From a virus (Duplodnaviria > Heunggongvirae > Uroviricota > Caudoviricetes), in IMG/VR virus record IMGVR_UViG_2681813421_000002, positions 22,586-86,585 of that record: a stretch of DNA of 64,000 nt. One strand, given 5' to 3'. The notes below the pieces were generated by a model, which saw only the letters and a list, made by a program, of their open reading frames with translations, was not told the origin of the DNA and made no database searches. The stretch's first letter is position 1. Every line of letters begins with the position of its first letter. This document shows, piece by piece, positions 21,259-63,867 of the stretch. The position numbers and the translations under genes are program-made.

Positions 21259-22661
21259 TCACTATTACCAAAGAACGCCTGCTGACAATCCAGCAGTGGC
21301 GCGAAACATACGGACCTGGTAGCAACGTTGTACTGCCAGCAGAAGAAGCGGAAGAACTGGCACGAATTGCTCTGGCATCGCTGGAAGCAAAACCAGTTGC
21401 TTATATTTTCAAACATCCGGCCGGGAAATTATTCTGGGCTTTAACGGATGAAAGCAATAAAGAGCAAGCGGACGTTATTCCTGTTTATGCTGCCGCGCCT
21501 GCGTCGGTTGTGCCGGATAATGCATCAGAGCCTCTTGCTTATGCTTACAAAGAGCTTACGCCTGAGATTATGCGCAACCATTTAGCTGTATTCGAGCGAT
21601 ATGGAATAGCCCCAAACGATAGCTCTACCACAATTCAGGCACTGCGAATCGCGCTGGATGGTATAGAGCGGAGCGACGCCATGCTTCAGTCCGGAAACTT
21701 TCGGGAAAACAAGAATTCGTCAACCAATAATTTTCGGGAAATCGCGGAAACGTCAACCAACTATCCGGTAATTCCTAGTGAGCTGTTGTCCGCAATCCTG
21801 AAGGTTGCCAAGATTCGTGCCGATTTCGATGATTTTGACGGTGACAGGCGAGGTATCGATGATTGTCTGGATGAGGCTGAGCAAGAGCTTATCGTTACCA
21901 TTAACAAATATGCCAGTCAGTTGGCAGCAGAACCGATAGCGACTAATGACGTTCGAGAGCAAACAGCCGTTCCGCCAGTTCCGGTAATGCAGGCTGATGT
22001 CGCGCAGGCAATTGAAAAACTCAAACGGAAATTAGTGGAATGCAATCGCTATAACTACTGTGCAGATGCAGTTAAAGGCGTAGAGGATGCCTGCCGTGCT
22101 GTTAGCTATAGCCAAGCCGACAATCAGCCAGCATCTGGCAACCAGGCTGCCGAATCCAATCGCGGTAATGAGTGGACCGGCAATCCTGATATTGATAACG
22201 CCATCATCATGCTCGATCGCATAGATACGCTGGAAAGTTGCGATGATGACCGTATTGAGGCTGTTAAGGCTGTTTTGCGTAGACTGGCTGGCAACTATCC
22301 GGATATTCCGGATAGTTCGGTGCCAGCGCCAGGAAAGGGCGTCACCGGTGAACGTATCCGCATTAAGCCGCATGTTTATCGCGAACTGGTTAACCGTCTC
22401 CACGATACAGCGATCAAGTGTGCTGGCACCCAGCAATTACGAGAAAGAATTAGCCGTGTTTTGGGCGACGTTATTACACCAGATCATCATAAACAAGCCG
22501 AGAAAAGTGACCTGGAAAGGTGTCACCTTGAGGCGGCATTAAACATTAAGCCGGGGCATACGCTTGGCATTATTGATGCACTATTGGTTCATAAGATGGC
22601 CAGGGCTTTATTGCCGCTGGTGGCTGAAAAGCATGAGGTGGACCATGCCAACGAAAGCTGA
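21255..22661 (+). CDS. Hypothetical protein with internal tandem repeat and C-terminal motif shared with 13113-13724
   Basis: 468 aa; repeated FRENK/FREIAE segment; YRELVNRLHD...GTQQLRER. Confidence 0.5.
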   Translation: MITITKERLLTIQQWRETYGPGSNVVLPAEEAEELARIALASLEAKPVAYIFKHPAGKLFWALTDESNKEQADVIPVYAAAPASVVPDNASEPLAYAYKELTPEIMRNHLAVFERYGIAPNDSSTTIQALRIALDGIERSDAMLQSGNFRENKNSSTNNFREIAETSTNYPVIPSELLSAILKVAKIRADFDDFDGDRRGIDDCLDEAEQELIVTINKYASQLAAEPIATNDVREQTAVPPVPVMQADVAQAIEKLKRKLVECNRYNYCADAVKGVEDACRAVSYSQADNQPASGNQAAESNRGNEWTGNPDIDNAIIMLDRIDTLESCDDDRIEAVKAVLRRLAGNYPDIPDSSVPAPGKGVTGERIRIKPHVYRELVNRLHDTAIKCAGTQQLRERISRVLGDVITPDHHKQAEKSDLERCHLEAALNIKPGHTLGIIDALLVHKMARALLPLVAEKHEVDHANES

Positions 22662-45200: not shown

Positions 45201-48200
45201 GACCAGTCCACCAGCGCCGTCTTCTTCGGCCTCGTCTGCATCATCTGCCACTTTACCGCCTGCGACTTTTGGCAGGGCATCAGCAATAGCTTTTACCTTG
45301 TCTGCAAGCTCAACGGGGAACTGGAATGTAATCGCACTGGCATACAGATCCGGATCTATAGCAACCTTATCCATGTCGCGGATGATGGAGAAGATGAAAT
45401 CATCCGGTTTGTCGTTAGTGATATGCCCGTTTTCATCGACTGTCAGCTCATCATTGCGACTTAACTCCTGAGCACGCTTACGAAGCTCTTCATAAGCAGC
45501 CTCCTGCTCCCCTGTCATCGGGATCTGCAAGGTGTTCTCGATGATATCGGGAATTTTAACCGTCGCTCCGACATCTGCGGCAGTCTTCAGAGTGGTCCAA
45601 CGGTGGAAAATACCACGCAGACCATCAAGGTTCTGGAAGCCCACCAGCCCCTGCTTCTCTTCCACCTCACCGGAAATTTTCTGAACCTGAACTGTGGCTG
45701 TTTTGCCGAACACGCGAACGAAATCATCCGGCGTAACAATACCCATGCGCATCCACTCTTCCTGCGGAATGACAGTAGACAGCATGTTGAAGGCATCAAT
45801 CGGACTGTTCACCAGCGGAGTTGCCGTCAGCATGACTACACCACGCCCGTTGTTGCGTTTCATCATGTACGCAGCTTTTACAGCCATGTCGCGGGCCATC
45901 TTGGATACTGCCGGGTTAGGCAAATATGCCAGTTGTCCCGCTTCACGCCCGGCATTAAAGGAGTTGCGGTAATTATGCCCCTCGTCGGCAATCACGCTAT
46001 CGAAGTTCATATCCTCAAAGTACGGGATATTCTGCTTCTTCGTTGTACCGGTATTCGCGGCCTGATCCTTAATCTTGTTCTTCTTCTGCGCATCACGGTG
46101 TTTACCGGACGCCAGGTCAAGACGCCCCATTTCCACAGCATTAAAGACAGCTTGCTGTGAGTTCTCCTCGATGGTTTTTTCTCGTAGCGGGATAGACGCG
46201 AATTGTTCTTTTGTCATGATGACCGTTCGCCAATTTGACGACGGGATCATGTTCATACGCTGAACGATAACGGCGCTGGCGGACTCTTTCACAACATTTC
46301 TGGTAAGAGGCTGCCCGTTACTGTCGAGGCGTGGTTCGCCATTTTCATCAAGCACCGGCGCGGTCAGAATATTTCCGCTGTCATCACGAACTTCATCCAA
46401 ACCGATAAACATCATATTGGCGAAGGCATCAGCACTGTAGAAACTCTGTGCCTCGTGATACCAGTTCTGATAAACCGCCTTCGGAACAACAATACACGTG
46501 CGTTTAGTGCGACCTGTTTCGAAGTTATACGCCTCAAGCGCAAGCGCGGTCGTGGTTTTACCCAGCCCGGTACCAAATCCCATGATGCCGCGCCCATCTT
46601 CTGACAAGCGCCGAACTTCTTCATTCTGATAAGTAAGAGGAATGCGCTTTCCACTAAGCCCTTCCAGGCCAAGCGGTGCGTCAGAATGTGTGAACGGAAT
46701 GAAACCATTGAATGCGTCGTTATAGTCACGGGCTATCTGATCCGCCTGCGGGTGGGTGCGTAACCAGTCGTTAAAGCTAACTTCCAGTTGAGCAATTTTA
46801 TCCAGGTACTCGTTAGCGTTCTGCCCACGCGGTTTAACACCGTTCAGGTAGTTTTCTAACTGGTTCAGGAAGCCGTCTTTATTGTTGGCCTTCTTGAACT
46901 CATTCCCGTTTTTGCCGTTTACGGTTCGTAGCTGATAGCCGGTAAATACCCCGTCCTTACCTTCGTAATCGTCCGGAGATACCAGAATGCCATCGACGAC
47001 CTTCAGATCAGGTTCAGTGTACTTAAACTCGTCATAGCCCTGCTCTGCCAGGAACTCTTTTATCAAGCGGCGATCCAGCCAGCGGGCATTCAGATTAACG
47101 GTGACTTTATTTAGTGGCGTGAAAATGCGTTTCTCTTCGATTTTCGCCAACTGACGCTCAAAGTTCGCTTTCTGCTCACCTGTTGACGCATCACGCCAGC
47201 CCACCAGCAGTGCTGTTTTGGTTGCAACATCGCCGCTGGTGGCGCGGTCCATCGGCAGCAGACAGCCATACCCATCAATAGCGATATCATCAAATTTCGC
47301 CAGGTATTCAAGGGCCGCGTCGTCGTCCTCTGGCAGTTCACCAGCAAACGCCTCACGAAAGTCGCCCAGCGTTATAGGATTAAGGGCTACATCACTAAAA
47401 AGATGTGCTATCACTTGTTCAGGACGCGTAAAGTCAATACCGGCAGCGCCATCCGTTACATCAAGTCGCCCTGCCAGAAGGTCAGAAGTGGAACCATCCT
47501 GTTTCACATTGCCAGTGAACGTCATCCAGTTTTTAGCGCCAGCTTCAGCAAGCCCATTCAGCTTAATCGCGTGCGGTGGTCCATACTTCGCAACTTCTGC
47601 TGCCGCCAGGCGGGATGCATCTGCCAGTTTGTCATCAACGTTCACCCCCAGGTTACGCAAATCAAGTGCCTTGTTGATCAACTGACCTATCAGTGCACCG
47701 CGCATAACGCGCTCCCTGTCTTTTTCTCGCTGCTTGCCAGCAAAGCGAATCATTGCTGCCACTTCATCACTGACAACCGATGGATAGTCAGACGCGATCG
47801 CCGATATCTGGTCCCATGACAAAGCCAGAATGCCATTTGTTGACTGAAACGCGATCTGCAGATCGCCAAACGTCGAAACACCATATCGACTTACATCAAG
47901 CGCGGAGGATTTGGTTGTCGTGTCCTTAACCCATTTCAGACCATCAAACTCATGCCAGATACCGCCTACAAGGCGTTTATCGCCCACTTTCGCGCCCTGC
48001 CATGCCTGAGTAGTTACGCCGAGCAAATCCCAATTGATGCGACTATCAAAGCGACGAGATAGCGCGGTTTTCATCGACTCATTGGATACACGACCGTCTT
48101 TTTTCACCACCAGGGTATTGCGGAAGCTGGTACGTTCCATGTCGCCGTAAACAAATCGCTTCCCTTCGGTTGTAAACCATTTTCCTTTGAGGAAGGTATC

Positions 48201-49184
48201 CCAAAGGACGTTTGCCGATTTGAGTGTTGAATCATCCGTGTCGGGGATCATCTCCAGGAAGGTTTCCGGGTGTTTACGCAATACCCATACGTCCACCACG
48301 GTATCTGTACCGGATTCGCTGAACGTACCGGAAGGCATACGATGTGCGCCCAAAAATTCCGCTTTACGGCTGACTTTATCGCGCAATTTTTTATATTTCG
48401 TACCATCGGTCATGCCATTTGGCACCACCAATACGATAAGCCCACCAGGCTTAACCTTGTCGATCGTGCGCAGCACAAAGTAATTGCCAACGTTCTTCTC
48501 GTTTGCATATGCCGGATCAAGCCCGGCAACGCCGGAACGCCCTTCACCAAACGGTACGTTACCAACAGCGTGGTCATACATTGCATCTTTCGCCGCCAGC
48601 GCCTCAAACGCCCCGATATTCACATCGTCTTCCGGGTGCAAAAGCTGGTTTATTCGACCGGAAATCGGAGACAGTTCGGCGCTGGTCATTATCATGCCCT
48701 GTCGTTTTGTCTCCTGGAAAATACCTGTGCCCGCTGATGGTTCCAGTACGTGCCCGCCATCAATACCGTAGTCAGCAAACAGATCCCATATACCTTCAGC
48801 CATAAACTGTGGCGTGTAGTATTCGTATTGGCTGCCCTCTCCATCTGTCAGGCCGCCTTCACCGGTATACCCAGCAAGAATCTGACGTTGTTCGTCAGTT
48901 AATTTCGCCCCATCGAAGCCGGGCGGAAGGGAATTAAGAAGATTTACTGCGGCATTGTTTGCTGCCCGGCGTGTTTTCTGAATACTGACGCCATCGGCTT
49001 TCCTGACGCCAAAGGTCGCAACAGCTCGTAATTTATGCAACCGACTAACAATTTCAATCAGTTCGCCTAAGCTGGAGGCTTCACTGATTGAATGAAGTAG
49101 TTTGTCCAAAGGATTTCCCCCTCTAAACCGTAAAAATTCCGCTATGCGGTACGGTTGAGAGGGTATGGAGAATGTTATTTTCAC
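42273..49184 (-). CDS. darB: DarB-like antirestriction protein (N6-adenine methyltransferase domain plus SF2 helicase)
   Basis: 2303 aa; VLEPSAGTGIF (SAM-binding) and NVPFG near N-terminus; helicase motifs GTGLGKT, DEGHNYRN, TATP further on; size matches P1 DarB. Confidence 0.8.
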   Translation of the reverse strand: MKITFSIPSQPYRIAEFLRFRGGNPLDKLLHSISEASSLGELIEIVSRLHKLRAVATFGVRKADGVSIQKTRRAANNAAVNLLNSLPPGFDGAKLTDEQRQILAGYTGEGGLTDGEGSQYEYYTPQFMAEGIWDLFADYGIDGGHVLEPSAGTGIFQETKRQGMIMTSAELSPISGRINQLLHPEDDVNIGAFEALAAKDAMYDHAVGNVPFGEGRSGVAGLDPAYANEKNVGNYFVLRTIDKVKPGGLIVLVVPNGMTDGTKYKKLRDKVSRKAEFLGAHRMPSGTFSESGTDTVVDVWVLRKHPETFLEMIPDTDDSTLKSANVLWDTFLKGKWFTTEGKRFVYGDMERTSFRNTLVVKKDGRVSNESMKTALSRRFDSRINWDLLGVTTQAWQGAKVGDKRLVGGIWHEFDGLKWVKDTTTKSSALDVSRYGVSTFGDLQIAFQSTNGILALSWDQISAIASDYPSVVSDEVAAMIRFAGKQREKDRERVMRGALIGQLINKALDLRNLGVNVDDKLADASRLAAAEVAKYGPPHAIKLNGLAEAGAKNWMTFTGNVKQDGSTSDLLAGRLDVTDGAAGIDFTRPEQVIAHLFSDVALNPITLGDFREAFAGELPEDDDAALEYLAKFDDIAIDGYGCLLPMDRATSGDVATKTALLVGWRDASTGEQKANFERQLAKIEEKRIFTPLNKVTVNLNARWLDRRLIKEFLAEQGYDEFKYTEPDLKVVDGILVSPDDYEGKDGVFTGYQLRTVNGKNGNEFKKANNKDGFLNQLENYLNGVKPRGQNANEYLDKIAQLEVSFNDWLRTHPQADQIARDYNDAFNGFIPFTHSDAPLGLEGLSGKRIPLTYQNEEVRRLSEDGRGIMGFGTGLGKTTTALALEAYNFETGRTKRTCIVVPKAVYQNWYHEAQSFYSADAFANMMFIGLDEVRDDSGNILTAPVLDENGEPRLDSNGQPLTRNVVKESASAVIVQRMNMIPSSNWRTVIMTKEQFASIPLREKTIEENSQQAVFNAVEMGRLDLASGKHRDAQKKNKIKDQAANTGTTKKQNIPYFEDMNFDSVIADEGHNYRNSFNAGREAGQLAYLPNPAVSKMARDMAVKAAYMMKRNNGRGVVMLTATPLVNSPIDAFNMLSTVIPQEEWMRMGIVTPDDFVRVFGKTATVQVQKISGEVEEKQGLVGFQNLDGLRGIFHRWTTLKTAADVGATVKIPDIIENTLQIPMTGEQEAAYEELRKRAQELSRNDELTVDENGHITNDKPDDFIFSIIRDMDKVAIDPDLYASAITFQFPVELADKVKAIADALPKVAGGKVADDADEAEEDGAGGLVSTRTSKVVKTTFSEHPAHVEIRASIELEAEILKAIAAAGIDLQQVSHPIPPKYAALIENLREGLKNGKQIVFIDEKAQHQKLRRIIASALQMPEQEIGIINATTVSQAGGIKLKKVNKPTEPTPNKNGEYKEGAWETYYSKLAQYEDYLSAKNDAGLEGMEGIAADYNEGRTRIIICNKKAEVGINLHIGTTDIHHLTLPWTPASIDQRNGRGARVGSPQEKVNVHYYCGKGTFDDFRLDTLKRKKDWIKMVMTSDMSEIANGDADDADERAIMLAANPEERRAIMARQAQEREERLKLKAQREANNALDIYLKAANAAGKDIGMMETELKSAMEQIEYYQRNLDDLIKAGTNRNGQKYALEQLSSYRKRARVLRFAITRAKDADTIMKRSRGDVERAIKSGVLDISIDVIQNPQEYMRTDKNILLHKGSYYRAVIDDRETTAIVRVEKIDGEKAQYLCRIAWLDRASRYARAPGSIVTLPFDSVIEAVTFEEGVAESRATAARGVQCHQLSTILTRDQFYDAIRNGVMNVIAGKPGNAWGGGSAIKYWAYRTDDGQIALSSAYDGVIGQKIGRASDIAPERWIYPDGNDEALKREVAKIQASDNPLNIVDGEGFLQALYGYDYIQGMQAWGAQATMDDVAQEFENWMAGRGLSGRSLNKVTSEDILSLFRKPSGEGLESFWRTVLAYRLFQGRMKAFSNIDDIERMFNQVKIAKIKAKIEKTRSALVAWRDALFEQYKSLSDADGWAALEQLANNGVDGAKLAIVQADNPLESPAAQWIKVGAVINAFDEKHISKDDFADAVSVNRLVEMATRRARELKDGDYVNELPDTLKSATWQDYVSLKNGGATESEIAERLEQAESKREEQAAVAEARADEAANDDYIIVVNDKPIRAKARVRGRWWSVSEDVGAVYLIADQPGSSTIRNAKDAIKKIGGRFWNFEANPVADVNFDRPAWMVSTRYSVDELRKIIADAA

Positions 49185-52482: not shown

Positions 52483-53481
52483 TTACCCCCTTCTGGAAAC
52501 GAAGAGTAACGGGGTAGTGTTTTTGTTCTCCTTCGGTGATAACTCTGGTTCTTTCTTGCCTGATACCGGTAAGCCATAAGTAGCATTTGCCCCAAGAGAT
52601 TCAAGCATCGCAGCCACTATGCGGGCATCATCTTCAGACTGCATACGGCAGAGCGCCCGGCGCTGTTCTGCGCTGATAAAAACAGGCATTTCCTGGATAG
52701 CTTCACGCAAAATCCGGCGGCATTGCTTTGCATTTTCCCCCTGGCTTTCCATCATCGCTGTTTGAGCGCGCAGCTTATCTCGAAGCTGTATGTTTTCCAC
52801 TTCAAGGAGCATCAATTCTGATTCCAGGGCTTCACGATGTGCAGATTCGAGCATGGCTTGCTGATTTTTCATTGCTGAAAAGTGGTGAACCAGATCCGTA
52901 GCAGCGTTATCGGTAAAACCTTGTTCGATAAGTGCTGCATGAATAGCCGCATCGCGCTCTTCTGCTGATTCAAGCATCAGGCTTTTCTTGTCGAGGCTGA
53001 TATAGTTAGGCACAGTTACGTAATCAAAGCCGTGGAAAGACTTTACCAGGGATACCGATGAATCTGGACCAGATGTAGCCCACGACCAACCACCAGCACC
53101 AGAATTAATCATGCCCTGAACAATACGCCCGGTGTCTGTATCCAGTATTTCCTGCGTATGAGTAACAATGCCGTTGTCGTCAATCGAAATGTCGATAGTC
53201 CTGTTTGACGGCACGTTCTCCAATACAACAGGCTTCCCATCTACCATCACAACAGAGACTTCCGGCAAGTTCAGGCTTTTCGTTTTGTTATAGTGCATCG
53301 CCCGGCGACCATGACCGTAATAACCATACATCTCACCCAGCGCGATACGCTCTTTTGTTTCTGGCGAGTTGAATGTGTCTCGTACCGACTGAATGACGTA
53401 ATTTCGGTTGTTCTGCGGTGTGTGTTTGCGGATTTTCTCTACCAGGGAGAAGCGATCCGTAACAGTATTCAGTGATTGCAT
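52483..53481 (-). CDS. Head morphogenesis/prohead protease-like protein (positional call)
   Basis: 332 aa directly downstream of portal-like gene. Confidence 0.35.
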   Translation of the reverse strand: MQSLNTVTDRFSLVEKIRKHTPQNNRNYVIQSVRDTFNSPETKERIALGEMYGYYGHGRRAMHYNKTKSLNLPEVSVVMVDGKPVVLENVPSNRTIDISIDDNGIVTHTQEILDTDTGRIVQGMINSGAGGWSWATSGPDSSVSLVKSFHGFDYVTVPNYISLDKKSLMLESAEERDAAIHAALIEQGFTDNAATDLVHHFSAMKNQQAMLESAHREALESELMLLEVENIQLRDKLRAQTAMMESQGENAKQCRRILREAIQEMPVFISAEQRRALCRMQSEDDARIVAAMLESLGANATYGLPVSGKKEPELSPKENKNTTPLLFVSRRG

Positions 53482-53494
53482 TATTTCCCTCCGG

Positions 53495-55177
53495 TTAATT
53501 GCTCATCACAAATTTTGCAAAGTTTATTAACTGTTCTGGCGTCCAGTTTTCCGGATCGTCACCGGACGACAACGGCGCGGATTCGTACATACCATGCTCG
53601 TTGTTTTGCTCTGATTCATTCGCCTTAAACTCTTTGATCATGGTGTTGAGAGTGTCATCGTCGATGTGCAACTGCTCAGTGAACAGATAACGCATAAACG
53701 CGTCGCTACCAGCCAGTTTCGGGTTGTTCTGGATCTGGTCCATAATTTGGGAGATGACAGCAACAAAGTTGGCGCGTGCATCCAGTTCTCGGTTTTCCTC
53801 TTCCTGGATAGCTGTGTTCATTGAGTTGAATTGCACGTCATAAGGGCGATTTGTTTCGGTGTAAACCTTGCCGTATTTATAAGCGAGGTGAATGTCCAGA
53901 AGCCGATAAATAGTTCGCTGGGCGGCCTGTCTGATCCAGTTCGCACGCAATGCAGCCTGGATAGCAGTTTGCTGCCAGCCGCCTTCTCCAAGCCCTCCGC
54001 TCATCTGATCAGCCCAGCCAAGCATTGTTGCGTCAATGCCGAGGCTTGCAGCAAGCTGCCGGAGGTGAAACATAACGTCTTCGATACCACTGATATCTGC
54101 GGGTATGGATTGCGTATCAATGGTGATGCCGTTCTTCCCGTCTCCCATAACAGGTATCAGATGGTTAAGCACAGTCGGAATAGCGTTGGCATTAATCGAC
54201 CTTTGCGCCACCAGGTCACTATGACGCTTCAATGCCTGGCTGACGCCACGCGTATAGTTCGCCGCATTAACCGGGTCCAGTGTGTTCGTCGTAAGAGCAA
54301 TCAGGCGGTCAATTTTGGCTGCATTATTTCGCGTTGATTTCAGCGCGGCGAGCGAAGCACATAAATTAAGGTAAGGTTCATAGCTGTATTCCAGGAATGA
54401 AGTTCCGTAATTCTGCGTCTCCATTAACGGCTTATCAGCCTGATCACTTAACAGTGAGTACCCTTTTGTGCCGTAGCTAACCGGAATAACTTTATGCTGT
54501 GGCGTCCAATAGGGATTTTTCATGGAAACCAGATTCCACGGTTCGGTTATTACTCTGCGCAAACTATGCGTATCCAGAATGTAATCACCACTGAAACCTA
54601 CCAGCTGGCTACCACGATAAAACTCCTGGACGAAGTGTGGCAGAGTGTAATAACTGGACTCAATGCCTGTTATCCCCCTGCCCTGTTCAGCATAAGGTCG
54701 GACATAAGACACCCCAAAGATCGCCATAATCATGGCCCATGAAGGAAGTCCGTCATTAATCATCGTCCCCAAATCAGCGGTTAACTCTTCACATCTACTT
54801 ACTGCCTCGGCATCGGAACCATCCTTTGGCGAAAGGATGAATGCTTGTCCGGTTTTTTTTGAAGGCGCAAGCGCATGTGCAATGTGAATATTTAAAGCCG
54901 TCGAGATAGTCGGGCTTTTAGCCATCGTTTCCAGGATGTTGTACTTTTGCAGGCGGTCGCCGGGCAGTTCTGCCGAAATTGATACTGTATCTGCCGCGCT
55001 TGTCATGCCATCGCTATTGCCACCCAGTATCCCCGGACGTAAAGCGGACAGACCAGAACGCGCAACGACACTATGACCGCTCGTAAAAACGACCGGATCG
55101 GCAGGCGTGACATCGCCACTGTTGAAGGCTTTCTTCAATGCCGACAGAAAGCCTTTGTTTTTGTCTTTCGTTGCCAT
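53495..55177 (-). CDS. Portal-like protein (positional/size call)
   Basis: 560 aa in morphogenetic block downstream of the Dar operon. Confidence 0.45.
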   Translation of the reverse strand: MATKDKNKGFLSALKKAFNSGDVTPADPVVFTSGHSVVARSGLSALRPGILGGNSDGMTSAADTVSISAELPGDRLQKYNILETMAKSPTISTALNIHIAHALAPSKKTGQAFILSPKDGSDAEAVSRCEELTADLGTMINDGLPSWAMIMAIFGVSYVRPYAEQGRGITGIESSYYTLPHFVQEFYRGSQLVGFSGDYILDTHSLRRVITEPWNLVSMKNPYWTPQHKVIPVSYGTKGYSLLSDQADKPLMETQNYGTSFLEYSYEPYLNLCASLAALKSTRNNAAKIDRLIALTTNTLDPVNAANYTRGVSQALKRHSDLVAQRSINANAIPTVLNHLIPVMGDGKNGITIDTQSIPADISGIEDVMFHLRQLAASLGIDATMLGWADQMSGGLGEGGWQQTAIQAALRANWIRQAAQRTIYRLLDIHLAYKYGKVYTETNRPYDVQFNSMNTAIQEEENRELDARANFVAVISQIMDQIQNNPKLAGSDAFMRYLFTEQLHIDDDTLNTMIKEFKANESEQNNEHGMYESAPLSSGDDPENWTPEQLINFAKFVMSN

Positions 55178-55358
55178 GAGTCACCGCGAAATGTTTTCAG
55201 TTTGCGGCAGCATAATCAGTATGTGATTTTTGATGATGGATCTTTTCAACTAGAAATATTGGCTGGCCCCTCTCGTAACAAAGTGAAGAATAAAACTTGA
55301 ATATGCACATTGTGCGCATTAAGATTGAAAAAGTTGACCACTTTGCTGCGGAGAAATC

Positions 55359-55663
55359 CCATGAAAAGCTCTTTAATTAATTCCAAATTACACCAACTTG
55401 CTATCAAAAATCGAGTTCCTGCATGGTCGGTTTACATGCATATCAGCCGCGCATGTCTGAGCAATGAAAACATTTACAATCTGCAAATTCTAAGCCGGGA
55501 AGGCAGGACTTTGTTTAGCGTTGCAGAGGATTCCTATAAGGCCTGGGATATGCTGGATGACGCGTTAAGCCAATACGCGCAAACAGAAGAATGCCAAAAA
55601 GAATGGGCCAGGTACTGTGATGAAGGGATGCCATGCTGCGGTCTATTCGGCGCAGCTCTGTGA
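55359..55663 (+). CDS. Hypothetical protein (first gene of two-gene plus-strand cassette)
   Basis: Start taken at MKSSLINSK; Cys-rich C-terminus. Confidence 0.4.
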
Positions 55664-55675
55664 ATCGATTCAACG

Positions 55676-55939
55676 ATGATATACTTCGTTGCGAATCACA
55701 GCATTGGCAAAGGGCATATTGTGAAACAACTCCCACCAAACACCCCGGAAACTATAATTGAAATCCGCCAGCGAATGGGGCTAACGCAAACGGAGTTAGC
55801 CCACAAAATGGGGTATCAACTCCGGGCTTGGCAATTCAAAGAAGATAGAAATAAACCGAGACGCCTTATGGCTGGTGAATTTGAGTACCTGTTATTGCTT
55901 GCTGGAGAGCATCCTGAATTTATTCTTACACCACGCTAA
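55676..55939 (+). CDS. XRE-type HTH DNA-binding protein
   Basis: 87 aa; IRQRMGLTQTELAHKMG HTH. Confidence 0.5.
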   Translation: MIYFVANHSIGKGHIVKQLPPNTPETIIEIRQRMGLTQTELAHKMGYQLRAWQFKEDRNKPRRLMAGEFEYLLLLAGEHPEFILTPR

Positions 55940-55960
55940 AAAAACCCGCCTGACGGCGGG
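55938..55960 (-). terminator. Rho-independent terminator (strong on minus strand, weaker on plus)
   Basis: CCCGCC-TGAC-GGCGGG with a 7-T run on minus strand. Confidence 0.55.
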
Positions 55961-55973
55961 ATTATCAATCATA

Positions 55974-56267
55974 TCAATTCACATCAATGTCTTGATATGA
56001 TTCGCCAGTATCGTCTTCGTCGTCAGGATCTCCTTCCACCTCTGGCCACTCAACCTCCCAGCCAACAGTTTCCAGGCTCCGCAGAACAAACACCCCATCG
56101 GCATGAATGGTATTCACGATCCCCATTGCGGAATTTGTGTTGATAAAGCGTAAATCTTGCGCAATATTTTCTTCCGAAATATCGCCTTCAAATATACGCA
56201 ATGTGCCGTCATCAGAGCATTCAACAATCCCTCTAATCCCAGCGGGACTCACAATGCTATACTTCAT
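55974..56267 (-). CDS. Small acidic protein at distal end of Dar operon
   Basis: 97 aa, D/E-rich C-terminus. Confidence 0.35.
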   Translation of the reverse strand: MKYSIVSPAGIRGIVECSDDGTLRIFEGDISEENIAQDLRFINTNSAMGIVNTIHADGVFVLRSLETVGWEVEWPEVEGDPDDEDDTGESYQDIDVN

Positions 56268-59200
56268 TTTGCAACTCCTTCATACATCCCAAGAAAAATT
56301 CCAGCACGCCGTCATTGTTTAATACAGAGTTAGTCGCCTGCTCCGGATCGGCATACATCTGCAAGGCCATAGAAAAAATCTCAGTCGCCCTGCAATTGCT
56401 TAATGCAGGTGGCTTTGATATAAATCTGCCGCTGACAGAACTTACCGTATTTTCCATATAAATTTTAGACATATATCCATGACTTAGGTCGGTTCGCACC
56501 AAATACTCAGCACTGCCACGGCTACCAATATTATGATAAGAAACTTTACCGTTAGTTTTTGATTTAATGAAGGCTTTGGCCCTCTCCAATAGATGGGGAT
56601 TTGAATGTTCTATATGGTGACCTATTTCATGCCATAATACACGCTCGTGATCACTATTAGCATCAATTGTTATATTCCCATTTCGACTTGCAAAAGCACG
56701 AACATTGTTCTTGTGGTTAATATTTTTTAATGTAGATAAAGTCCCTCCTGAAATAATATAGGCTTTTTCAATCGTCTCGCGAATACTGTATGCTTTACGG
56801 GAGAAAGTTTCATTATCGTGACCACTTAACTGCTCTGCTTCATCAGAAATAGCAATCCCACGACTCCATTCCTTAGACTGGTCATGTGACACATTTGACG
56901 ATTCAAGAATCATGTCAAATGCGGCTCTGACTTTTTTATGTACTACATTTTCAAGCGCATTAGGATAGGCTTTTTGTCCACGTGTTAATGAAGCTATTTC
57001 ATATAGTTCTGCTTGCAAGTCTTCCGGTATGTCCAGATTAAAAACAAGCATTTTTTTCAGATCATATCCAATCCCATGATCATTCTGGTGCAAAACCTCA
57101 GCAAGGTAGTCAGTGAGTTTTTCCTTATTTGACCTAACTTTATTGATTTGTTCTATAGTAAAGTCAACACGCTCCTTGATTCCGTAATATGAGGAATGCT
57201 CTGCTAATTCCACTATCTCCTTAAGCCTGACAAGTGTCTCAATATACGCATCAGCGATCTCCTCTGCCGTTAGTTCAGAGCTAACTCCGACACTGGCTGT
57301 TATTTTCCTACCAGCCGCCATAATATCGTCGATATTATGCAAGCTCTTTTTGAATAACTTCAAAGTATTTTGGATTATGCACACCATCTCTTCTGCGCTT
57401 CCAGCTTTATTCATTTCCTTTCTAAATCTTAAAGCTGTTTTCTCTGCAATAGACGCTGGAGATTTTAAATAGTTACCTAACCAAACAAGACAACCATTGC
57501 GCAATTCATCAATACTAAAGTCATCAGGAATATGTTTTGCTGCATTATGTAAAACACGTATAAATTGTTCAGCGGGCACGCCTTCTTCTGATATGTTGCA
57601 AAACGTTTCAATATCACAATCAATATTTCTTTCATCTGCGAGCGAAGGAGCTTCATCTCCTTTTTCAATCGCGTCACGCAGTGCGTTAGCATAAAAATTG
57701 CTGCGTTGATAAGACAATAACATCGTTGTTAACACAGCGTCGCTGTATCCATAACGTTTAGCCCACTCCTTAATCTCATTAACGGTGACATTGCGAATAT
57801 AAAAACCAAGTTCCAAAAATACATTGCGCTTTATTTTTTTTGCGGACTCCTTAATTTTTTCTGACACCTTCACGATTCGGATCAAGTCCTCCACGCTGGT
57901 CGCATCAGCAATTAGCTTTGAAATGTATGGTTCGACATCTCCTGAAACCGATTCAAACATGGCGAAATTAAGCCCTTTACCTTCGCCATACTCAGCCTCA
58001 ATTTCATCAGAAACGGCAGATAAAATGCTACGCAGATCGACATCTCCGCCGCCGAACATATCGCCTAACGCTTGTTGCTGGTGAATAAGTTCATCGTTAA
58101 TTTTTTGCGCCAGTTTCTTGAAAGCTGCCCCCATTCGCTTAGCGCTTCGGTTGTTGGCAACAATAAACAGAGCAAGCGCTTCTGCTTCCGGAGTGCTATC
58201 TCCAAACAATCCACGCTGTGCGATCACCTCTTCTACTGCCTGACCGTTATCTTTTGCTTCACGAACAAGGTTAATTGCTTCCTGTAGCGCGGCAATAGCC
58301 TGTTTATCCAGACCATTCAATTGCTCTATACCGTCTACCAGTCCGGTTACCGTGTCATGGTGAACATCACCTGAAAGCGACTGCATTTGCGCAAAATCGC
58401 TGGCTGCCGTATTTAATGCGGTAAGAATGTTACGCATTTCCGGATCTGGCTCTTCCGCCACCAGCCGAACAAGCCTTTCATCCTTGTACGCTTTGGCAAA
58501 AATTGCATTCTGGATGCGGTCGATAAGTTGTTTCGTTGGACGCCCATCGGCAGTAAGCAAACCTGCCGTCGCCGTATCACCTATTTCGCGCAAAAACGCA
58601 CGAATAAACGCATCATTGGACCGCGCCAGTAGATTTCCATCATCTGAAGGATTAAATAGCGCCATGACGCTCTCAGTGAGAAATTGCGCATCCGCATACG
58701 CTTTTTCACTTGCAGCCATCTCTTGCAGATCGCTGATGTTTGAATCACGGGCAAATTGTGCGCGGTCTACATCTGTGAGTCTTTCTCGCACCAATACGGG
58801 CATAGACATTTGTGAAATGTCGTCAGGATTCAGACCAAACTCTTTTGCATGATCGATCAGGTACTGGCGATATTCATCCGCCTGCCCTTGCTCATAGGCA
58901 CGCCAGATACCCATGCTCCTTCCGTTGCCGGATTCAACAACGTTGTCCGGACCAACTATCGGCGCTCCGTGGCTGCTCATGCCGGAATCCGTTAATTGTG
59001 CCGGGCGTAAATTGGAGGCAATACGGTTAACCTGGAGTTTGCTTGATAGCCGTGTACGGTCACGTGGCTGGAGTTCTTCCGGGAAGGCCGGATTAATCGT
59101 ACCGTCAAGGTTGTTCGAAATGATCAGACTGCTGGCATCAACGACCTTAAAAGCCGTCTTTACCTCTGCCCCTTTACTGGTGACTACGTAACTACTGCGC

Positions 59201-59298
59201 CCCTGGCGTGTTTCTCGCCTCTCTAATGAAGAAACCAGCGCAATAACACTGTTAATGTCTGCTGCTTCGGATAGCGCGGAAGTAACTGACTTGTTCAA
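56257..59298 (-). CDS. ddrB: DdrB-like large virion-associated antirestriction component with C-terminal HExxH motif
   Basis: 1013 aa; position and size match P1 ddrB; WHEIGHHIEH near C-terminus. Confidence 0.5.
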   Translation of the reverse strand: MNKSVTSALSEAADINSVIALVSSLERRETRQGRSSYVVTSKGAEVKTAFKVVDASSLIISNNLDGTINPAFPEELQPRDRTRLSSKLQVNRIASNLRPAQLTDSGMSSHGAPIVGPDNVVESGNGRSMGIWRAYEQGQADEYRQYLIDHAKEFGLNPDDISQMSMPVLVRERLTDVDRAQFARDSNISDLQEMAASEKAYADAQFLTESVMALFNPSDDGNLLARSNDAFIRAFLREIGDTATAGLLTADGRPTKQLIDRIQNAIFAKAYKDERLVRLVAEEPDPEMRNILTALNTAASDFAQMQSLSGDVHHDTVTGLVDGIEQLNGLDKQAIAALQEAINLVREAKDNGQAVEEVIAQRGLFGDSTPEAEALALFIVANNRSAKRMGAAFKKLAQKINDELIHQQQALGDMFGGGDVDLRSILSAVSDEIEAEYGEGKGLNFAMFESVSGDVEPYISKLIADATSVEDLIRIVKVSEKIKESAKKIKRNVFLELGFYIRNVTVNEIKEWAKRYGYSDAVLTTMLLSYQRSNFYANALRDAIEKGDEAPSLADERNIDCDIETFCNISEEGVPAEQFIRVLHNAAKHIPDDFSIDELRNGCLVWLGNYLKSPASIAEKTALRFRKEMNKAGSAEEMVCIIQNTLKLFKKSLHNIDDIMAAGRKITASVGVSSELTAEEIADAYIETLVRLKEIVELAEHSSYYGIKERVDFTIEQINKVRSNKEKLTDYLAEVLHQNDHGIGYDLKKMLVFNLDIPEDLQAELYEIASLTRGQKAYPNALENVVHKKVRAAFDMILESSNVSHDQSKEWSRGIAISDEAEQLSGHDNETFSRKAYSIRETIEKAYIISGGTLSTLKNINHKNNVRAFASRNGNITIDANSDHERVLWHEIGHHIEHSNPHLLERAKAFIKSKTNGKVSYHNIGSRGSAEYLVRTDLSHGYMSKIYMENTVSSVSGRFISKPPALSNCRATEIFSMALQMYADPEQATNSVLNNDGVLEFFLGCMKELQNEV

Positions 59299-59391
59299 AA
59301 TACACTCCCCTTACATAGAAAGCAGGAAGTGTAAAAAGTGTGTGATTTATGGACTTACAGGAAAGTGAAAGGGGCATTTCAGCCCCTTTGA

Positions 59392-59766
59392 TTACCCTGC
59401 ATAACCGTTGGCTTTCACCCAGCTTATGGTCTGCTCTTTAGCCTGTTCCAACGTAAGGAACTCGCCAACATAGTTTGAGATCCCACGCAGCGCATCAATA
59501 AATTCCATTTGTGTGGACTTTGTGAACACACCGCCCAGGAAGTCAGTCACTATCTTAGGAACTTCATCTGCAACAGGATCAGACTGTGGGTGCGGTTGCG
59601 GTTCCGATATCGGTTGAGCGGCAGCACCCAGCCCCAGCTTAAGCATCAGATCAACAATCTGCTTACCAATTGCGACGCGTTGTAATACTGGCGCGGTTTT
59701 CTGCGCCTGCATTAAATCTGATAGCTCTTTACCCAATTTCAGACGGTCTAAAACAGAGATAGTCAT
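59392..59766 (-). CDS. ddrA: DdrA-like protein (positional call)
   Basis: 124 aa between darA-like and ddrB-like genes. Confidence 0.4.
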   Translation of the reverse strand: MTISVLDRLKLGKELSDLMQAQKTAPVLQRVAIGKQIVDLMLKLGLGAAAQPISEPQPHPQSDPVADEVPKIVTDFLGGVFTKSTQMEFIDALRGISNYVGEFLTLEQAKEQTISWVKANGYAG

Positions 59767-61709
59767 TAAGCACCTCCCTGCTGAATTTCAGCCAGGATGT
59801 TGATCAGGTAGTCAACTGCTGCGCCAACCGTTGATTCGTTCTCGTCGTATCGACCAGCACTGATAAGAGCGTTTGCAGCTTCCTGCACATGGTCAAGTTC
59901 GGCACTGATTACCGTCAGATCGCGGGATGTAAACTGCACCGGGACGGATTTAAGGTACTCCAACGCTTTATCTGCTTCCTGATCAGCTTCAGTTGCCGCT
60001 TCTCCAGCGTCTTCCGGCGTTGGCTGTTGCTCTGGTTCTGTTTGTGGGTGGGATTCTGGCTCAACTACAGGTGCTAATTCAGGCTCTGGCGTTGCTTCGT
60101 TTGAATGATTTTGAAGGGCGTTATATACGTCCATAATGAAAAGGTTCTCCCCATCACCAAGCGGATAAGCCACGTTTGGAAACGCTTTGCGGAAAAGAAT
60201 TTTCACTTGCGCCTTGAATGTTTTCAGGTCACTGCCAAACAGGTCTACATAGCCATCAATATGTTTCGACATGCTGGACACAACCAATTGGCCTGCAAAA
60301 TCTTTCAGCTCATCTTCATCAGGAAGATAGAGCAACTCGTACTGGCTGACTTCTTCATCTGTCAGTTTACGGTCATACGTAATGATACCGTGACGAGCAT
60401 ATTCATAATACTGATCAGCCTGGTCAGGACGATCAAGCACGGCTTTATTTCCATCCGGAACAGCACCAACACCAGCCGGACGAGATTGAAGTGCATAGTG
60501 GTATTTACCTACATCCTGGCTCTCTGGTTGTGATACTGGGTTCGTCTCGGGGTCTGTCTGTGGTGGTTCGGGGTCTTCCTGCTGGCCTGGTAACACATCA
60601 ACTTTATATTTATCTGCGTTATGCTCTCGGTAGGCTTTAAGTAATTTGGTTGCAGCATCTGCCAAACTGCCTCCTTTGACAGCACTGGCATCAATACTGA
60701 ATTTACCTTCAGGTGCTACTATCGTAACGAAATTATCACTGCCGGACGTGACATAATTAACTTCAGCGCCATTATCCAGCACTGTTTTTCCGTCAATGGC
60801 AAGATTATGTTTTACATGTCGCAGCTGGTCACTAAACGCTCGTTCTTTCGTTTTTTCACCTTTAGCAGACAACAATTTATCGCGTTTTGCTTGTAATTCC
60901 TCGTTGATGGCTTTCTGGGCATCAAGTTTTTTTTGCATCTCCGTAAGAGCAGCACGCTTTTCAGTCAGCCCACGTTGCGCAACTTCCACCTGATCAATCA
61001 TTATTGACCGTTCTTCTGCCAGTTTATCTGCTTCATTGAGATAACTCTCAATATCTGCCTTCATTTTGTCCTGGCGCTCTTTTGCTTTCTTAAATTTTTC
61101 GCTGTTACGCTCAATCAAATTAGATAGCGCCTGGCATACCTGGCTTAAAGAAACATCTCTCCCACCAATCGGGGCGACAACGTGAGTTACGTTACGTTTA
61201 TTAAGTAAAAACTGAAATGCAACAAGCTCGTCGTTACTCTTTATTTTTGCCCCGTCAGCTGTTGGAGAGTGGAAAATTATGCTTGTACTCTGCCCGTCAG
61301 TAAGCGGTATCTGCGCGGTCAAAACAGGGATATTAGCTACCCGACGTACACGACCGATAATCGCACCTCCAATACAATTACGTCCATTTTCATCGGTCCC
61401 AGCTTCATCAGTCCCTGCCATAATATTCGTACCATTCAGGCCACGATTCAGCGCACGGACGAAAGCTCGCATTGTTTGAGCTAACCGAATTCTGGTTGTA
61501 GTTATGGACTCAAACATAGCTTCGTCAGACACAACCAGAATTTCATTGCCCATATAGGCAAGCTCAATATCTTCTAAGGTCGCCGCCTCAAAAATCAGGT
61601 CATCTTCGCTTAATTCTTCTGAAGACCAGCGACTTGGCATATAGCCGGGGATCGTATCAGCAAAAGTAGACTGAATATTAATTCGTAAAGGATTGTTAAT
61701 CATGCTCAT
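59766..61709 (-). CDS. darA: DarA-like antirestriction/head protein
   Basis: About 647 aa; internal coiled-coil and Pro/Glu-rich linkers; operon position hdf-darA-ddrA-ddrB. Confidence 0.5.
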   Translation of the reverse strand: MSMINNPLRINIQSTFADTIPGYMPSRWSSEELSEDDLIFEAATLEDIELAYMGNEILVVSDEAMFESITTTRIRLAQTMRAFVRALNRGLNGTNIMAGTDEAGTDENGRNCIGGAIIGRVRRVANIPVLTAQIPLTDGQSTSIIFHSPTADGAKIKSNDELVAFQFLLNKRNVTHVVAPIGGRDVSLSQVCQALSNLIERNSEKFKKAKERQDKMKADIESYLNEADKLAEERSIMIDQVEVAQRGLTEKRAALTEMQKKLDAQKAINEELQAKRDKLLSAKGEKTKERAFSDQLRHVKHNLAIDGKTVLDNGAEVNYVTSGSDNFVTIVAPEGKFSIDASAVKGGSLADAATKLLKAYREHNADKYKVDVLPGQQEDPEPPQTDPETNPVSQPESQDVGKYHYALQSRPAGVGAVPDGNKAVLDRPDQADQYYEYARHGIITYDRKLTDEEVSQYELLYLPDEDELKDFAGQLVVSSMSKHIDGYVDLFGSDLKTFKAQVKILFRKAFPNVAYPLGDGENLFIMDVYNALQNHSNEATPEPELAPVVEPESHPQTEPEQQPTPEDAGEAATEADQEADKALEYLKSVPVQFTSRDLTVISAELDHVQEAANALISAGRYDENESTVGAAVDYLINILAEIQQGGA

Positions 61710-62316
61710 CCTCCAGGCGCGCGATTTCTTCTTTAAGAGCACGTGTCTTAGCTACTTCCTGAGACAAGGCAGCTTTAACGTTACCCGTATCTTGTATTAC
61801 TTTGTCTGACTTGCTCTGGAGTTTAGACAGTTTGTCGTTAGCATTAGCGATATCTTCACGGAGTGCATCACGTGATTCTTTCGCTTCAGCTAATTTCTGA
61901 GCGTTAGATTTAACTCCCTGCCGCTTCTTATTTCCGTCATCAATATTTTTTGCTGCACGAGCAAGTTTTCGAGCTAATGACTTCTGGAAAGAAGTTGCTC
62001 CGCGATTAAATAAAGCCGCAAGAGATTGCCCCAAAGCCGACATTGTTTTTACTGGCTTGAACGGTACTGTTTTACCATTCAGTTTGATCCCAGATATATC
62101 ACCGGTATCGTTAACCTGAACTTCCATTGTCTGTTCATCAATACCAATAAGGGTAAACGTGCGCGTCATGATCCCATCTTTCTTCCTGCCATTACTTGCA
62201 GGGATCACCCTCGCTATCTTGTAACCACCTTTGCTGATTTCTTTGACGAGTTTTGCCAGCCCCTTTTCGTTTAACTCATCATAATTAAGAAGAACATAAT
62301 TATTCTTATTTGACAT
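61696..62316 (-). CDS. hdf: Hdf-like protein (positional call)
   Basis: 206 aa between lydB-like and darA-like genes. Confidence 0.4.
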   Translation of the reverse strand: MSNKNNYVLLNYDELNEKGLAKLVKEISKGGYKIARVIPASNGRKKDGIMTRTFTLIGIDEQTMEVQVNDTGDISGIKLNGKTVPFKPVKTMSALGQSLAALFNRGATSFQKSLARKLARAAKNIDDGNKKRQGVKSNAQKLAEAKESRDALREDIANANDKLSKLQSKSDKVIQDTGNVKAALSQEVAKTRALKEEIARLEDEHD

Positions 62317-62752
62317 CCCAGTCTCCTTTACGCTTTTCGATCGTAAACTGGCGCTCTATGCAGTCATTGATAGGGAAAATGCGATAAAGCGGATTCAGTC
62401 GGCAGTTACCGTTAGTCAATGTGACTTTCAGATCCCACTTCGTTGGCTCAAGATATTTCGTATCGATGAGCAAATACTCTTCTCTCTCACCGCGTTTTGA
62501 GGCGTCAACTGGTCGCGTTTTCCCTGAAATAACCACAGATGGATTTTTCAGGTCTTGCAACCAATATTCGATTTGAGCATTGCTGACCCAGCTTCGCTTA
62601 ACACGTAGCGAAACAGGAAATGCTATAGCGGATTCTTTCACTACAGCGTCACCAATACTCAAAATCTCAACACTCTTGCGACGAAAAATGAAACGGTCAA
62701 TGATGGCAACAAATGCCATGATAAAAATGAAATAATTTCCAAAGTTACCCAT
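62306..62752 (-). CDS. lydB: LydB-like antiholin (positional call)
   Basis: 148 aa with N-terminal hydrophobic segment, downstream of holin-like gene. Confidence 0.45.
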   Translation of the reverse strand: MGNFGNYFIFIMAFVAIIDRFIFRRKSVEILSIGDAVVKESAIAFPVSLRVKRSWVSNAQIEYWLQDLKNPSVVISGKTRPVDASKRGEREEYLLIDTKYLEPTKWDLKVTLTNGNCRLNPLYRIFPINDCIERQFTIEKRKGDWDVK

Positions 62753-63078
62753 TATTTCTCTCCACCTTTTCCCCCATTCGCTATTACGCTTAAGAGATTC
62801 AAGACGTTACTAGCTCTGGACTTCAAGCCCTGTAAAATTTCACTACCGTTGTTACTGGCAATCAGAACAACGCAGAAAATGATACCTTCAGGCCATTCTT
62901 GGCTAACCGCCACCCCATACCCCGCAAGCCCGGCTGTTACCGCAGTAAACAATTCACTCGCAAGATTGAGCAGGGACGCAGAAATGCGCCCGTCTCTAAC
63001 TCCGAGAAGGAATACGCCGGTTCCACTTAGTAGGGATGTTATGACTACTACAGCCAGATTTTCATAATCTGCAAACAT
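62752..63078 (-). CDS. lydA: Holin-like membrane protein (LydA-like)
   Basis: 108 aa with three hydrophobic helices and charged C-terminus. Confidence 0.5.
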   Translation of the reverse strand: MFADYENLAVVVITSLLSGTGVFLLGVRDGRISASLLNLASELFTAVTAGLAGYGVAVSQEWPEGIIFCVVLIASNNGSEILQGLKSRASNVLNLLSVIANGGKGGEK

Positions 63079-63181
63079 ACCCCTCCAGAAATAACATCTA
63101 ATGCGCCACTAACTTAGTCAGTTTGTTATTTCCTTACAGGACATCTTCTAGGATCGTATCCTTAGCATACAAGGGAGACAT

Positions 63182-63220
63182 ATGCTTATTGGATACATTC
63201 GCATATCAACAAATGATGAT
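63182..63220 (+). pseudogene. Remnant 5-prime end of a second serine recombinase gene
   Basis: Encodes MLIGYIRISTND with its own AAGGGAG ribosome-binding site, then loses homology; the frame runs antisense into cin. Confidence 0.4.
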
Positions 63221-63294: not shown

Positions 63295-63867
63295 TTACAT
63301 TTCAGGTTGCGTTATGACAGTCCCAACAGGGTGATAGCGGTAGATCGTTGACAGTCCAATATCATAGATAATTGCCAGCCGCTTTCTGTCATACCCTTTC
63401 TGGAGCAATCTTGCGATCTGCTCATGCTGCTCCTTCGTCAGTTTCGGGCGACGTCCTCCAACTCTTCCTTGTGATCGCGCAGCAGCCAGTCCTGCCAGCG
63501 TGCGCTCAACTATCAGTTCACGCTCCATTTCTGCCAGTGCACCCATCATATGAAAAAAGAACCTTCCCATCGGAGTGCTGGTATCGATTGAATCCGTCAG
63601 ACTGCGAAAATTGACACCTTTTGCGCGTAGCTCTTCTGTGAGAGCAATGAGGTGTTTCATTCTTCTACCCAACCGATCCAGCTTCCAGACCACCAATGTA
63701 TCCCCTCTTTTAAGGCACTTTAAAGCGCGTTTCAGGCCTGGTCGTTCCGACTTGGTTCCGCTCATTTTGTCCTCAAAAATCTGTTCACATCCTGCGCACA
63801 TTAATGCATTGCGTTGCAAATCTGTGTTTTGGTCATTTGTTGACACACGTATGTAGCCAATCAGCAT
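63295..63867 (-). CDS. cin: Cin-type DNA invertase (serine recombinase)
   Basis: 190 aa; MLIGYIRVSTNDQNTDLQRNAL...GDTLVVWKLDRLGR...C-terminal HTH; closely matches P1 Cin/Gin/Hin family. Confidence 0.85.
   Translation of the reverse strand: MLIGYIRVSTNDQNTDLQRNALMCAGCEQIFEDKMSGTKSERPGLKRALKCLKRGDTLVVWKLDRLGRRMKHLIALTEELRAKGVNFRSLTDSIDTSTPMGRFFFHMMGALAEMERELIVERTLAGLAAARSQGRVGGRRPKLTKEQHEQIARLLQKGYDRKRLAIIYDIGLSTIYRYHPVGTVITQPEM

Follow-up and report, generated by a model that had tools for sequence, protein, structure and literature searches.

The window analysed here is a 64,000-nt stretch (positions 22,586 to 86,585) of the IMG/VR virus record IMGVR_UViG_2681813421_000002, and its sequence identifies it as a D6-type, P1-related plasmid-prophage of Escherichia coli. 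Seven minus-strand genes between 63078 and 55974 almost certainly constitute a P1-type darA late operon, with orthologues of P1 lydA, lydB, hdf, darA, ddrA, ddrB and hxr in that order. The DdrB-like product is a two-unit 'polyvalent' protein, in which a ParB/Srx-type module is joined by a linker to a helical middle region and a C-terminal gluzincin-type domain. This C-terminal domain very probably has a zincin fold. The best overall explanation, which we hold with moderate confidence, is a darA operon whose DdrB carries an active, self-processing zincin.

The zincin prediction is correct but already present in the literature and in annotation, and the protein described here is a divergent new member of the DdrB family. 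The RefSeq note for P1 ddrB reads 'unknown protein function; possible metallopeptidase', a suspicion that dates from 2004, and the ddrB gene of phage JL22 is annotated 'putative metallopeptidase'. A 2013 survey of HExxH proteins treated the P1 ddrB family as suspected zincins with a formal description pending (PMC3650047). Iyer, Burroughs, Anand, de Souza and Aravind (2017; PMC5512222) described a C-terminal zincin-like metallopeptidase (MPTase) domain in P1 DdrB and proposed autoproteolysis. The additions made here are modest and testable: where the modules of DdrB join, how rarely the long form occurs in the D6 clade, and the coupling of DdrB to Hxr.

Domain organisation of DdrB

The DdrB of the window is collinear with P1 DdrB over residues 4-1011 (44% identity, tblastn) and covers positions 10-994 of the 995 positions of phrog_2299. 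The gene and its parts are as follows.

56257-59298, minus strand: ddrB-like gene for a polyvalent protein of 1013 amino acids (aa) and 112.4 kDa; TTG start codon downstream of the ribosome-binding site GGGGAG
57985-59298, minus strand: N-terminal module, residues 1-438, consisting of the ddrB-ParB domain and a conserved helical extension
58780-59175, minus strand: ddrB-ParB domain (PF18763), residues 42-173 (Pfam, E 1e-41)
57943-57984, minus strand: linker, residues 439-452 (GEGKGLNFAMFE449-SVS), of low confidence in the model; module junction
56983-57930, minus strand: all-helical, fast-evolving middle region, residues 457-772
56260-56961, minus strand: predicted C-terminal zincin (gluzincin-type) metallopeptidase-like domain, residues ~780-1013
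56605-56634, minus strand: WHEIGHHIEH in translation, residues 889-898, within the predicted helix 885-899

Column conservation is 0.56 at residues 1-50, 0.68-0.89 at residues 51-450, and 0.30-0.42 at residues 451-850. The N-terminal module is 65% identical to that of P1 and 97% identical to the short DdrB of D6, and its GNGR box (E122-S-G-N-G-R127) is invariant in 43 homologues. An antisense frame within ddrB (58328-58723, plus strand) is 60.6% identical to P1 'IddB'. ddrB is at its most conserved over this frame, so the similarity is taken as a by-product of ddrB conservation and the frame was rejected as a gene.

The first-pass annotation, which was made from the sequence of the window, described ddrB as markedly AT-rich. 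This description applies to the 3´ 55% of the gene, where the guanine-plus-cytosine (GC) content is 0.389 (codons 449-769) and 0.392 (codons 770-1013) compared with 0.476 for the window, and it fails for codons 1-448 (0.493). In P1 ddrB, the GC content drifts only from 0.53 to 0.455 (0.455-0.50 in the 3´ half), compared with 0.39 in the 3´ half here.

An invariant HExxH motif

The HExxH motif that the first-pass annotation reported near the C-terminus is present within residues 889-898. A single HExxH is weak evidence alone, since it occurs in 4.4% of shuffles of the DdrB sequence; it is regarded as a real motif because it is conserved in the long homologues. The alignment with P1 DdrB that the annotation had proposed shows WHELGHHLEY at the equivalent position, and JK004 has WHEVGHHLEF. 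Among the 120 homologues listed, all of those of at least ~760 aa carry HExGH[HFM]xE at ~104-135 residues from the C-terminus. A word-indexed search with the C-terminal 233 aa returned one match only; the full-length query and an exhaustive phmmer search were used in its place.

In 43 aligned full-length homologues, twelve positions are invariant: R867, H890, E891, G893, H894, H895, E897, E931, Y942, Y947, E973 and S976. The middle region around this invariant set is only 30-40% conserved. E973 sits in a conserved TE(V/I)xS sequence directly before the predicted helix 974-980. Relatives of the domain were also found in other multidomain phage proteins that carry ART or MuF domains. A reading in which HExxH arose by chance, in a helical region without enzymatic function, would be compatible with the frequency of HExxH in shuffled sequences and with the lack of a match to any curated zincin profile. 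The invariance of both HExxH and the distal Glu in all long homologues, together with a confident model that matches zincins, excludes this reading, to which we assign a negligible probability.

A predicted zincin fold

Sequence profiles do not recognise the domain. No zincin family was matched in Pfam at E<=10 with the C-terminal 215 or 567 aa, and a marginal Pfam match to SRP19 in the middle region is regarded as spurious. NCBIfam gave no match for a zincin domain. A hidden Markov model of the domain retrieved no zincin below E 1 from the PDB sequences; its best match, a local HELGHxxEY in aristolochene synthase (E 0.1), is at chance level. Thus, the profile search of the C-terminus against zincin families that the first-pass annotation proposed found nothing in Pfam or in the PDB sequences, and evidence from the fold is needed because the sequence profiles are empty.

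An AlphaFold model of residues 770-1013 was built from 29 diverse sequences and has a mean predicted local distance difference test (pLDDT) score of 94.9 and a predicted template modelling (pTM) score of 0.91. From the N-terminus, the model predicts helices, a sheet of three strands, the helix with HExxH, an insert rich in beta structure and, starting just past E973, a further helix. The strands are predicted at residues 859-862, 869-871 and 875-878, followed by helix 885-899 with H890-E-x-x-H894. Residues ~914-972, which separate the HExxH helix from this last helix, form a beta-rich insert specific to the family. Among solved folds, anthrax lethal factor (LF), the LF-like domain of Certhrax, and the Pro-Pro endopeptidases (PPEPs) come closest; further fold matches include M1 aminopeptidases, Wss1, SprT, astacin and thermolysin. 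The model of full-length DdrB matches these zincins again. A zincin-fold signal, whose absence the first-pass annotation had named as grounds for giving up the peptidase reading, is therefore present in the predicted structure, and the other ground that it named, a motif not conserved among DdrB homologues, fails as well.

The layout agrees with that described for the MPTase core in PMC5512222, in which a three-stranded sheet and the HExxH helix are followed by a variable insert and then by a second helix with the Glu ligand; P1 DdrB is a worked example in that study. The residue three positions past HExxH is acidic in both cases, Glu in DdrB and Asp in one phage clade of PMC5512222. No Pfam model covers the polyvalent-protein MPTase clade to which DdrB belongs. 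The gluzincins anthrax LF, PPEP and MtfA share only 10-13% identity with the DdrB domain, without a profile-level match, and in DdrB the invariant Tyr and the distal Glu lie further apart than the 7 residues that are usual in these three.

In the predicted active site, H890, H894 and E973 would serve as zinc ligands and E891 as the general base, and the pocket would be lined by E897, R867, E931 and Y942. The domain is likely a catalytically competent peptidase.

Proposed processing of DdrB

In P1, the products of hdf, darA, ddrA and ddrB are packaged in the head, injected with the DNA, and blunt type I restriction; such in-head packaging and in cis protection by Dar proteins are known for P1 only. 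The ddrB gene is non-essential in P1. P1 DdrB is reportedly trimmed to ~76 kDa before packaging, which has been attributed to the C-terminal MPTase (PMC5512222). Following Iyer et al. (2017), DdrB would be made as a 112-kDa precursor, and the C-terminal gluzincin, as an active peptidase, would trim DdrB while the head is being assembled or afterwards. Self-processing would give the shorter virion form (~76 kDa in P1), and the co-translated acidic Hxr-like protein would work together with the C-terminal unit. That self-processing is the main role of the zincin is a tentative proposal, about which we are slightly more doubtful than convinced.

Several observations weigh against an active, self-processing zincin. 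The 76-kDa P1 product is unlike the sizes that a cut at the linker would yield (48 and 61 kDa). The P1 prohead protease Pro, which processes the capsid protein and DarA, could be the enzyme that trims DdrB. The whole C-terminal unit is missing from D6 and most D6-type plasmids and is therefore dispensable for phage propagation. No experimental report on zinc binding or peptidase activity of DdrB was found in the searchable literature. The convergent geometry of H890, H894 and E973 is inferred.

The position of the cut can be constrained by the P1 data. If the 76-kDa product is N-terminal, it would end near residue ~698 of P1 DdrB (~692 in the protein described here). In P1 virion proteomics, DdrB coverage is 59.5%, so at least ~590 residues are present in virions, more than the 441-residue N-terminal module; the supplement of that study holds no peptide-level data for DdrB. 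A linker cut that packages the N-terminal module alone clashes with both the 76-kDa product and the coverage and was rejected. Given these same two observations, the linker, though a module boundary, is probably not the sole processing site.

Instead of cutting DdrB itself, the zincin could act in trans, as an injected or in-head effector that cuts host proteins (such as subunits of the restriction complex) or other Dar proteins. This is an open alternative for the polyvalent-protein MPTases in PMC5512222, and the closest solved folds (anthrax LF, Certhrax and the PPEPs) belong to secreted toxins and peptidases that cut specific host targets. The 59.5% coverage in P1 virions allows packaged C-terminal parts, and the fast-evolving middle region fits an arms-race interface. 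We nevertheless consider a trans-acting effector unlikely, given that no target is known, that D6-type phages are mostly without the domain, and that the P1 virion study summarises DdrB as aiding the addition of DarB to the capsid and gives it no activity of its own.

Processing of DdrB by Pro would leave the zincin-like domain with a structural or packaging role, like the MPTase-containing region of the N4 virion RNA polymerase, which is packaged unprocessed and whose MPTase region is required for encapsidation (PMC5512222). In P1, Pro cuts between E120 and S121 of the capsid protein and also cuts the N-terminus of DarA, and in the DdrB linker an invariant Glu has Ser or Ala after it (MFE449-S). 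Against this, a cut at the linker does not yield the 76-kDa product, and the two His, the Glu between them, the distal Glu and the Tyr are strictly invariant down to ~20% identity, as purifying selection on catalysis would produce; we rate this alternative as improbable. A zincin-fold hydrolase that acts on a non-protein substrate, for instance a YbeY-like metallonuclease, is more improbable still. An active peptidase that processes DdrB stays the preferred explanation, at the confidence given above.

Short and long forms of DdrB

Nucleotide homology to D6 stops at 57953, within codon 449. The D6 DdrB is a 454-aa short form that ends just past the linker, and D6 is without the middle region, the zincin domain and hxr; in place of the ddrB 3´ unit and hxr, it has orf23 and a DUF4145 gene. 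In D6 and D6-type plasmids, the short DdrB proteins (453-461 aa) stop 4-12 residues past the invariant Glu of ...GEGKGLxFxMFE. In the model of full-length DdrB, the lowest pLDDT (37) is found for the block 441-450, and residues 439-452 are accordingly regarded as a linker that is probably flexible. The end of D6 homology, the step in GC content from 0.49 to 0.39, the lowest pLDDT and the stops of the short forms are all no more than a few codons from Glu449.

The long form is rare. Among 118 PLSDB plasmids that match the 5´ 1.35 kb of ddrB, four also have the 3´ half, hxr and the adjacent XRE gene, and the remaining 114 match over the 5´ 1.35 kb only. The 3´ half of the long ddrB occurs in 6 of 5,426 complete E. 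coli genomes, every time on a plasmid. Identity to the closest full-length relatives falls from 86-90% in the N-terminal module to 29-38% in the middle region, and is 53-59% in the zincin domain. Other relatives have an InPase domain in place of the C-terminal unit or an added PBECR2 domain. This uneven divergence and these domain swaps are the mosaic pattern expected of polyvalent proteins. The sharpness of the GC step would favour acquisition of the long form here by recombination over its being ancestral.

More speculatively, the middle region, the zincin and the coupled Hxr may form one exchangeable cassette that is joined to the ParB module at a linker acting as a hot-spot of recombination and truncation (Glu449). 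Under this doubtful proposal, Hxr would be a dedicated partner of the zincin and not a repressor, and could act as an inhibitor, as a chaperone, or as an acidic factor that is co-injected and resembles a DNA mimic; the long form, with its low GC content in a D6 backbone, would represent re-acquisition of the cassette. If this is true, short and long DdrB in near-identical phages would be a natural pair for probing the role of the peptidase.

Coupling of an acidic hxr-like gene to ddrB

The last gene of the operon overlaps the end of ddrB.

55974-56267, minus strand: hxr-like gene for a small acidic protein of 97 aa with an isoelectric point (pI) of 4.05; its ATG overlaps the ddrB stop by 11 nt, and a ribosome-binding site was read

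The product is 41% identical to P1 Hxr (E 3e-16) and 50% identical to JK004 gene_115, and it matches phrog_2292 (function unknown, E 2e-39); it is assigned as the orthologue of P1 Hxr. Coupling was examined at further loci (our loci L002, L003, L007, L008, L010-L013 and L018-L094). At all nine diverse loci with a zincin-bearing DdrB, a gene for 96-121 aa with a pI of 4.05-4.33 overlaps or abuts the ddrB stop. All 30 distinct IMG/VR loci examined have the equivalent gene (96-106 aa), which begins 8-14 nt before the ddrB stop, and the Hxr-like proteins of these loci share a conserved GWxV(E/D)WP and an acidic tail. An Hxr-like gene is absent from both informative zincin-less loci, namely D6 and the Vibrio ParB-InPase form (locus L009). 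A functional link between Hxr and the zincin unit is plausible.

P1 hxr has been labelled a 'possible repressor' and an Xre homologue since 2004. In the 97-aa protein, no helix-turn-helix (HTH) family was matched in Pfam at E<=10, and no HTH protein was found in a profile search against the PDB sequences. The lack of an HTH signal and the strict coupling to zincin-bearing DdrB suggest that the repressor label is doubtful. It is the neighbouring plus-strand gene at 55676-55939 that does match HTH_3.

The acidic tail of Hxr varies among near-identical P1-type phages (loci L034-L094), with runs of 4 to 9 Asp and total lengths of 101-106 aa, which suggests that tail length is slippage-prone or selected. 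The segment 55230-55973 is absent from D6. It holds the HTH_3/XRE-type gene, for which the Prokaryotic Genome Annotation Pipeline (PGAP) product is 54 aa (~55775-55939) and which is convergent with hxr and shares its terminator hairpin region, as well as an open reading frame (ORF) at 55310-55663 (plus strand) whose function is unannotated.

The darA operon and its surroundings

The minus-strand genes between 63078 and 55974 are co-directional and tightly packed in the ORF map, which was compared with the P1 and D6 annotations. The genes upstream of ddrB are listed below.

62752-63078, minus strand: lydA-like holin, 108 aa (phrog_1527 holin, E 8e-39); labelled in D6 as a holin similar to P1 lydA
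62306-62752, minus strand: lydB-like holin antagonist, 148 aa (Pfam LydB, E 1e-24; phrog_1898, lysis determining protein, E 6e-69)
61696-62316, minus strand: hdf-like, 206 aa, with a DarA_N domain (Pfam, E 7e-18; phrog_1620, Hdf-like, E 7e-76; 40% identity to P1 Hdf)
59766-61703, minus strand: darA-like internal head protein, 645 aa, with the start as in D6; the open frame reaches 61742
59392-59766, minus strand: ddrA-like, 124 aa (phrog_1855, DdrA-like, E 4e-49; 34% identity to P1 DdrA, E 3e-22)

All seven products match the families of their P1 counterparts in Pfam, PHROGs or NCBIfam. The DarA-like product matches the NCBIfam equivalog anti_RE_DarA (1143 bits), Pfam DarA_N (E 5e-40) and DarA_C (E 8e-19), the DarA family of PHROGs, and P1 DarA (38% identity, E 5e-140). 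The Pfam LydA holin match of the LydA-like product is under its cut-off (E 0.003), and NCBIfam has no model for DdrB, DdrA or Hxr. Identities to the P1 proteins are 40% for Hdf, 38% for DarA, 34% for DdrA, 44% for DdrB and 41% for Hxr (E 3e-16 to 0). At the nucleotide level, phage D6 is 97.5-97.7% identical to the region 57953-63216, and the D6 genes there bear the same names; over 53000-55229 the identity is 98.3%. These family matches, the P1 alignments, the D6 identity and a terminator-like hairpin after hxr underlie the identification of the darA operon. The gene order and sizes on which the first-pass annotation had based the same identification agree with P1.

Four non-mobilizable E. coli plasmids of 92-96 kb are 98.7-100% identical over the whole region. 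They label the 1013-aa gene 'hypothetical protein' with equal coordinates, and the PGAP gene call for ddrB in plasmid pB2C_96 is identical.

In the P1 darA operon, the genes have the same order and orientation and overlap in the same way, the hxr start over the ddrB stop among them, and P1 DdrB is collinear from end to end and shares the WHExGHHxE motif. In contrast to P1, amino-acid identity is only 34-44%, lydC is not found between cin and lydA, and the IS1 region downstream is missing.

The first-pass annotation also called the Dar operon complete. This is true of the darA operon; the full Dar gene set consists of the darA operon counted together with a DarB-like and an Ulx-like gene, which sit elsewhere in the window.

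42276-49109, minus strand: darB-like gene outside the operon, with methyltransferase and SNF2-type helicase parts; open frame 42273-49184, 2303 aa
41805-42236, minus strand: ulx-like gene outside the operon, 144 aa

The DarB-like product matches Pfam N6_Mtase, SNF2-rel_dom and Helicase_C and is 99.3% identical in amino acids to the D6 DarB-like protein; the Ulx-like product is 100% identical to that of D6 (tblastn). The D6 counterpart of the darA operon is orf25-orf30. In the window, the darB-like and ulx-like genes lie ~7 kb downstream of the darA operon, from which they are separated by ant, icd, repL, pro and the portal gene.

Transcription signals and flanking features

Two candidate signals bracket the operon.

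63096-63115, minus strand: candidate P1-type late promoter, with a -22 box AAGTTAGTG at 63107-63115, 37 nt upstream of the lydA ATG
55945-55960, minus strand: intrinsic-terminator-like hairpin, CCCGCC-GTCA-GGCGGG and then T7, 14 nt past the hxr stop (terminator scan)

In P1, an Lpa-dependent late promoter (LPdar) lies upstream of lydA. The box AAGTTAGTG resembles AAGTTACTT of LPdar and AAGTGATTT of LPlyz in the P1 record, and its position is equivalent. In a relaxed search with the late-promoter pattern, matches were no commoner than in shuffled sequence, and the candidate is without statistical support. Expression of the operon would be late, with a P1-like -22 box at the expected place though statistically unsupported. 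The hairpin is the probable end of the operon. Transcription would thus pass through lydA-lydB (holin and antiholin), then hdf-darA-ddrA-ddrB, then hxr, and end at the intrinsic terminator.

Here 93 nt separate the end of ddrA from the start codon of ddrB, compared with only 12 nt in P1. This gap contains a stem-loop at 59368-59389 (minus strand), AAAGGGGC-TGAAAT-GCCCCTTT, which the terminator scan did not call because its T run is weak; this stem-loop may be an attenuator or an RNA-processing element.

Upstream of the operon, a 35-nt inverted repeat occupies 63182-63216 (plus strand) and 63833-63867 (minus strand), with 83% complementarity and 616 nt between the copies. The sequence MLIGYIRISTND is the first 35 nt of a D6-type cin, on the plus strand and at the location of cin in D6. 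A complete invertase gene lies on the minus strand (63295-63867), inverted relative to D6 and P1, and its product is only 73% identical in amino acids to D6 Cin. The gene body looks inverted or replaced.

Implications for Dar protection

In the protection of injected DNA by the P1 Dar proteins, the role of DdrB is the least understood part. The window is ~98% identical to D6 on both flanks and yet carries a full-length DdrB with Hxr, so that the two constitute a natural deletion series. A comparison of the short and long forms could test the bearing of the peptidase unit on DdrB processing, DarB packaging and the evasion of restriction.

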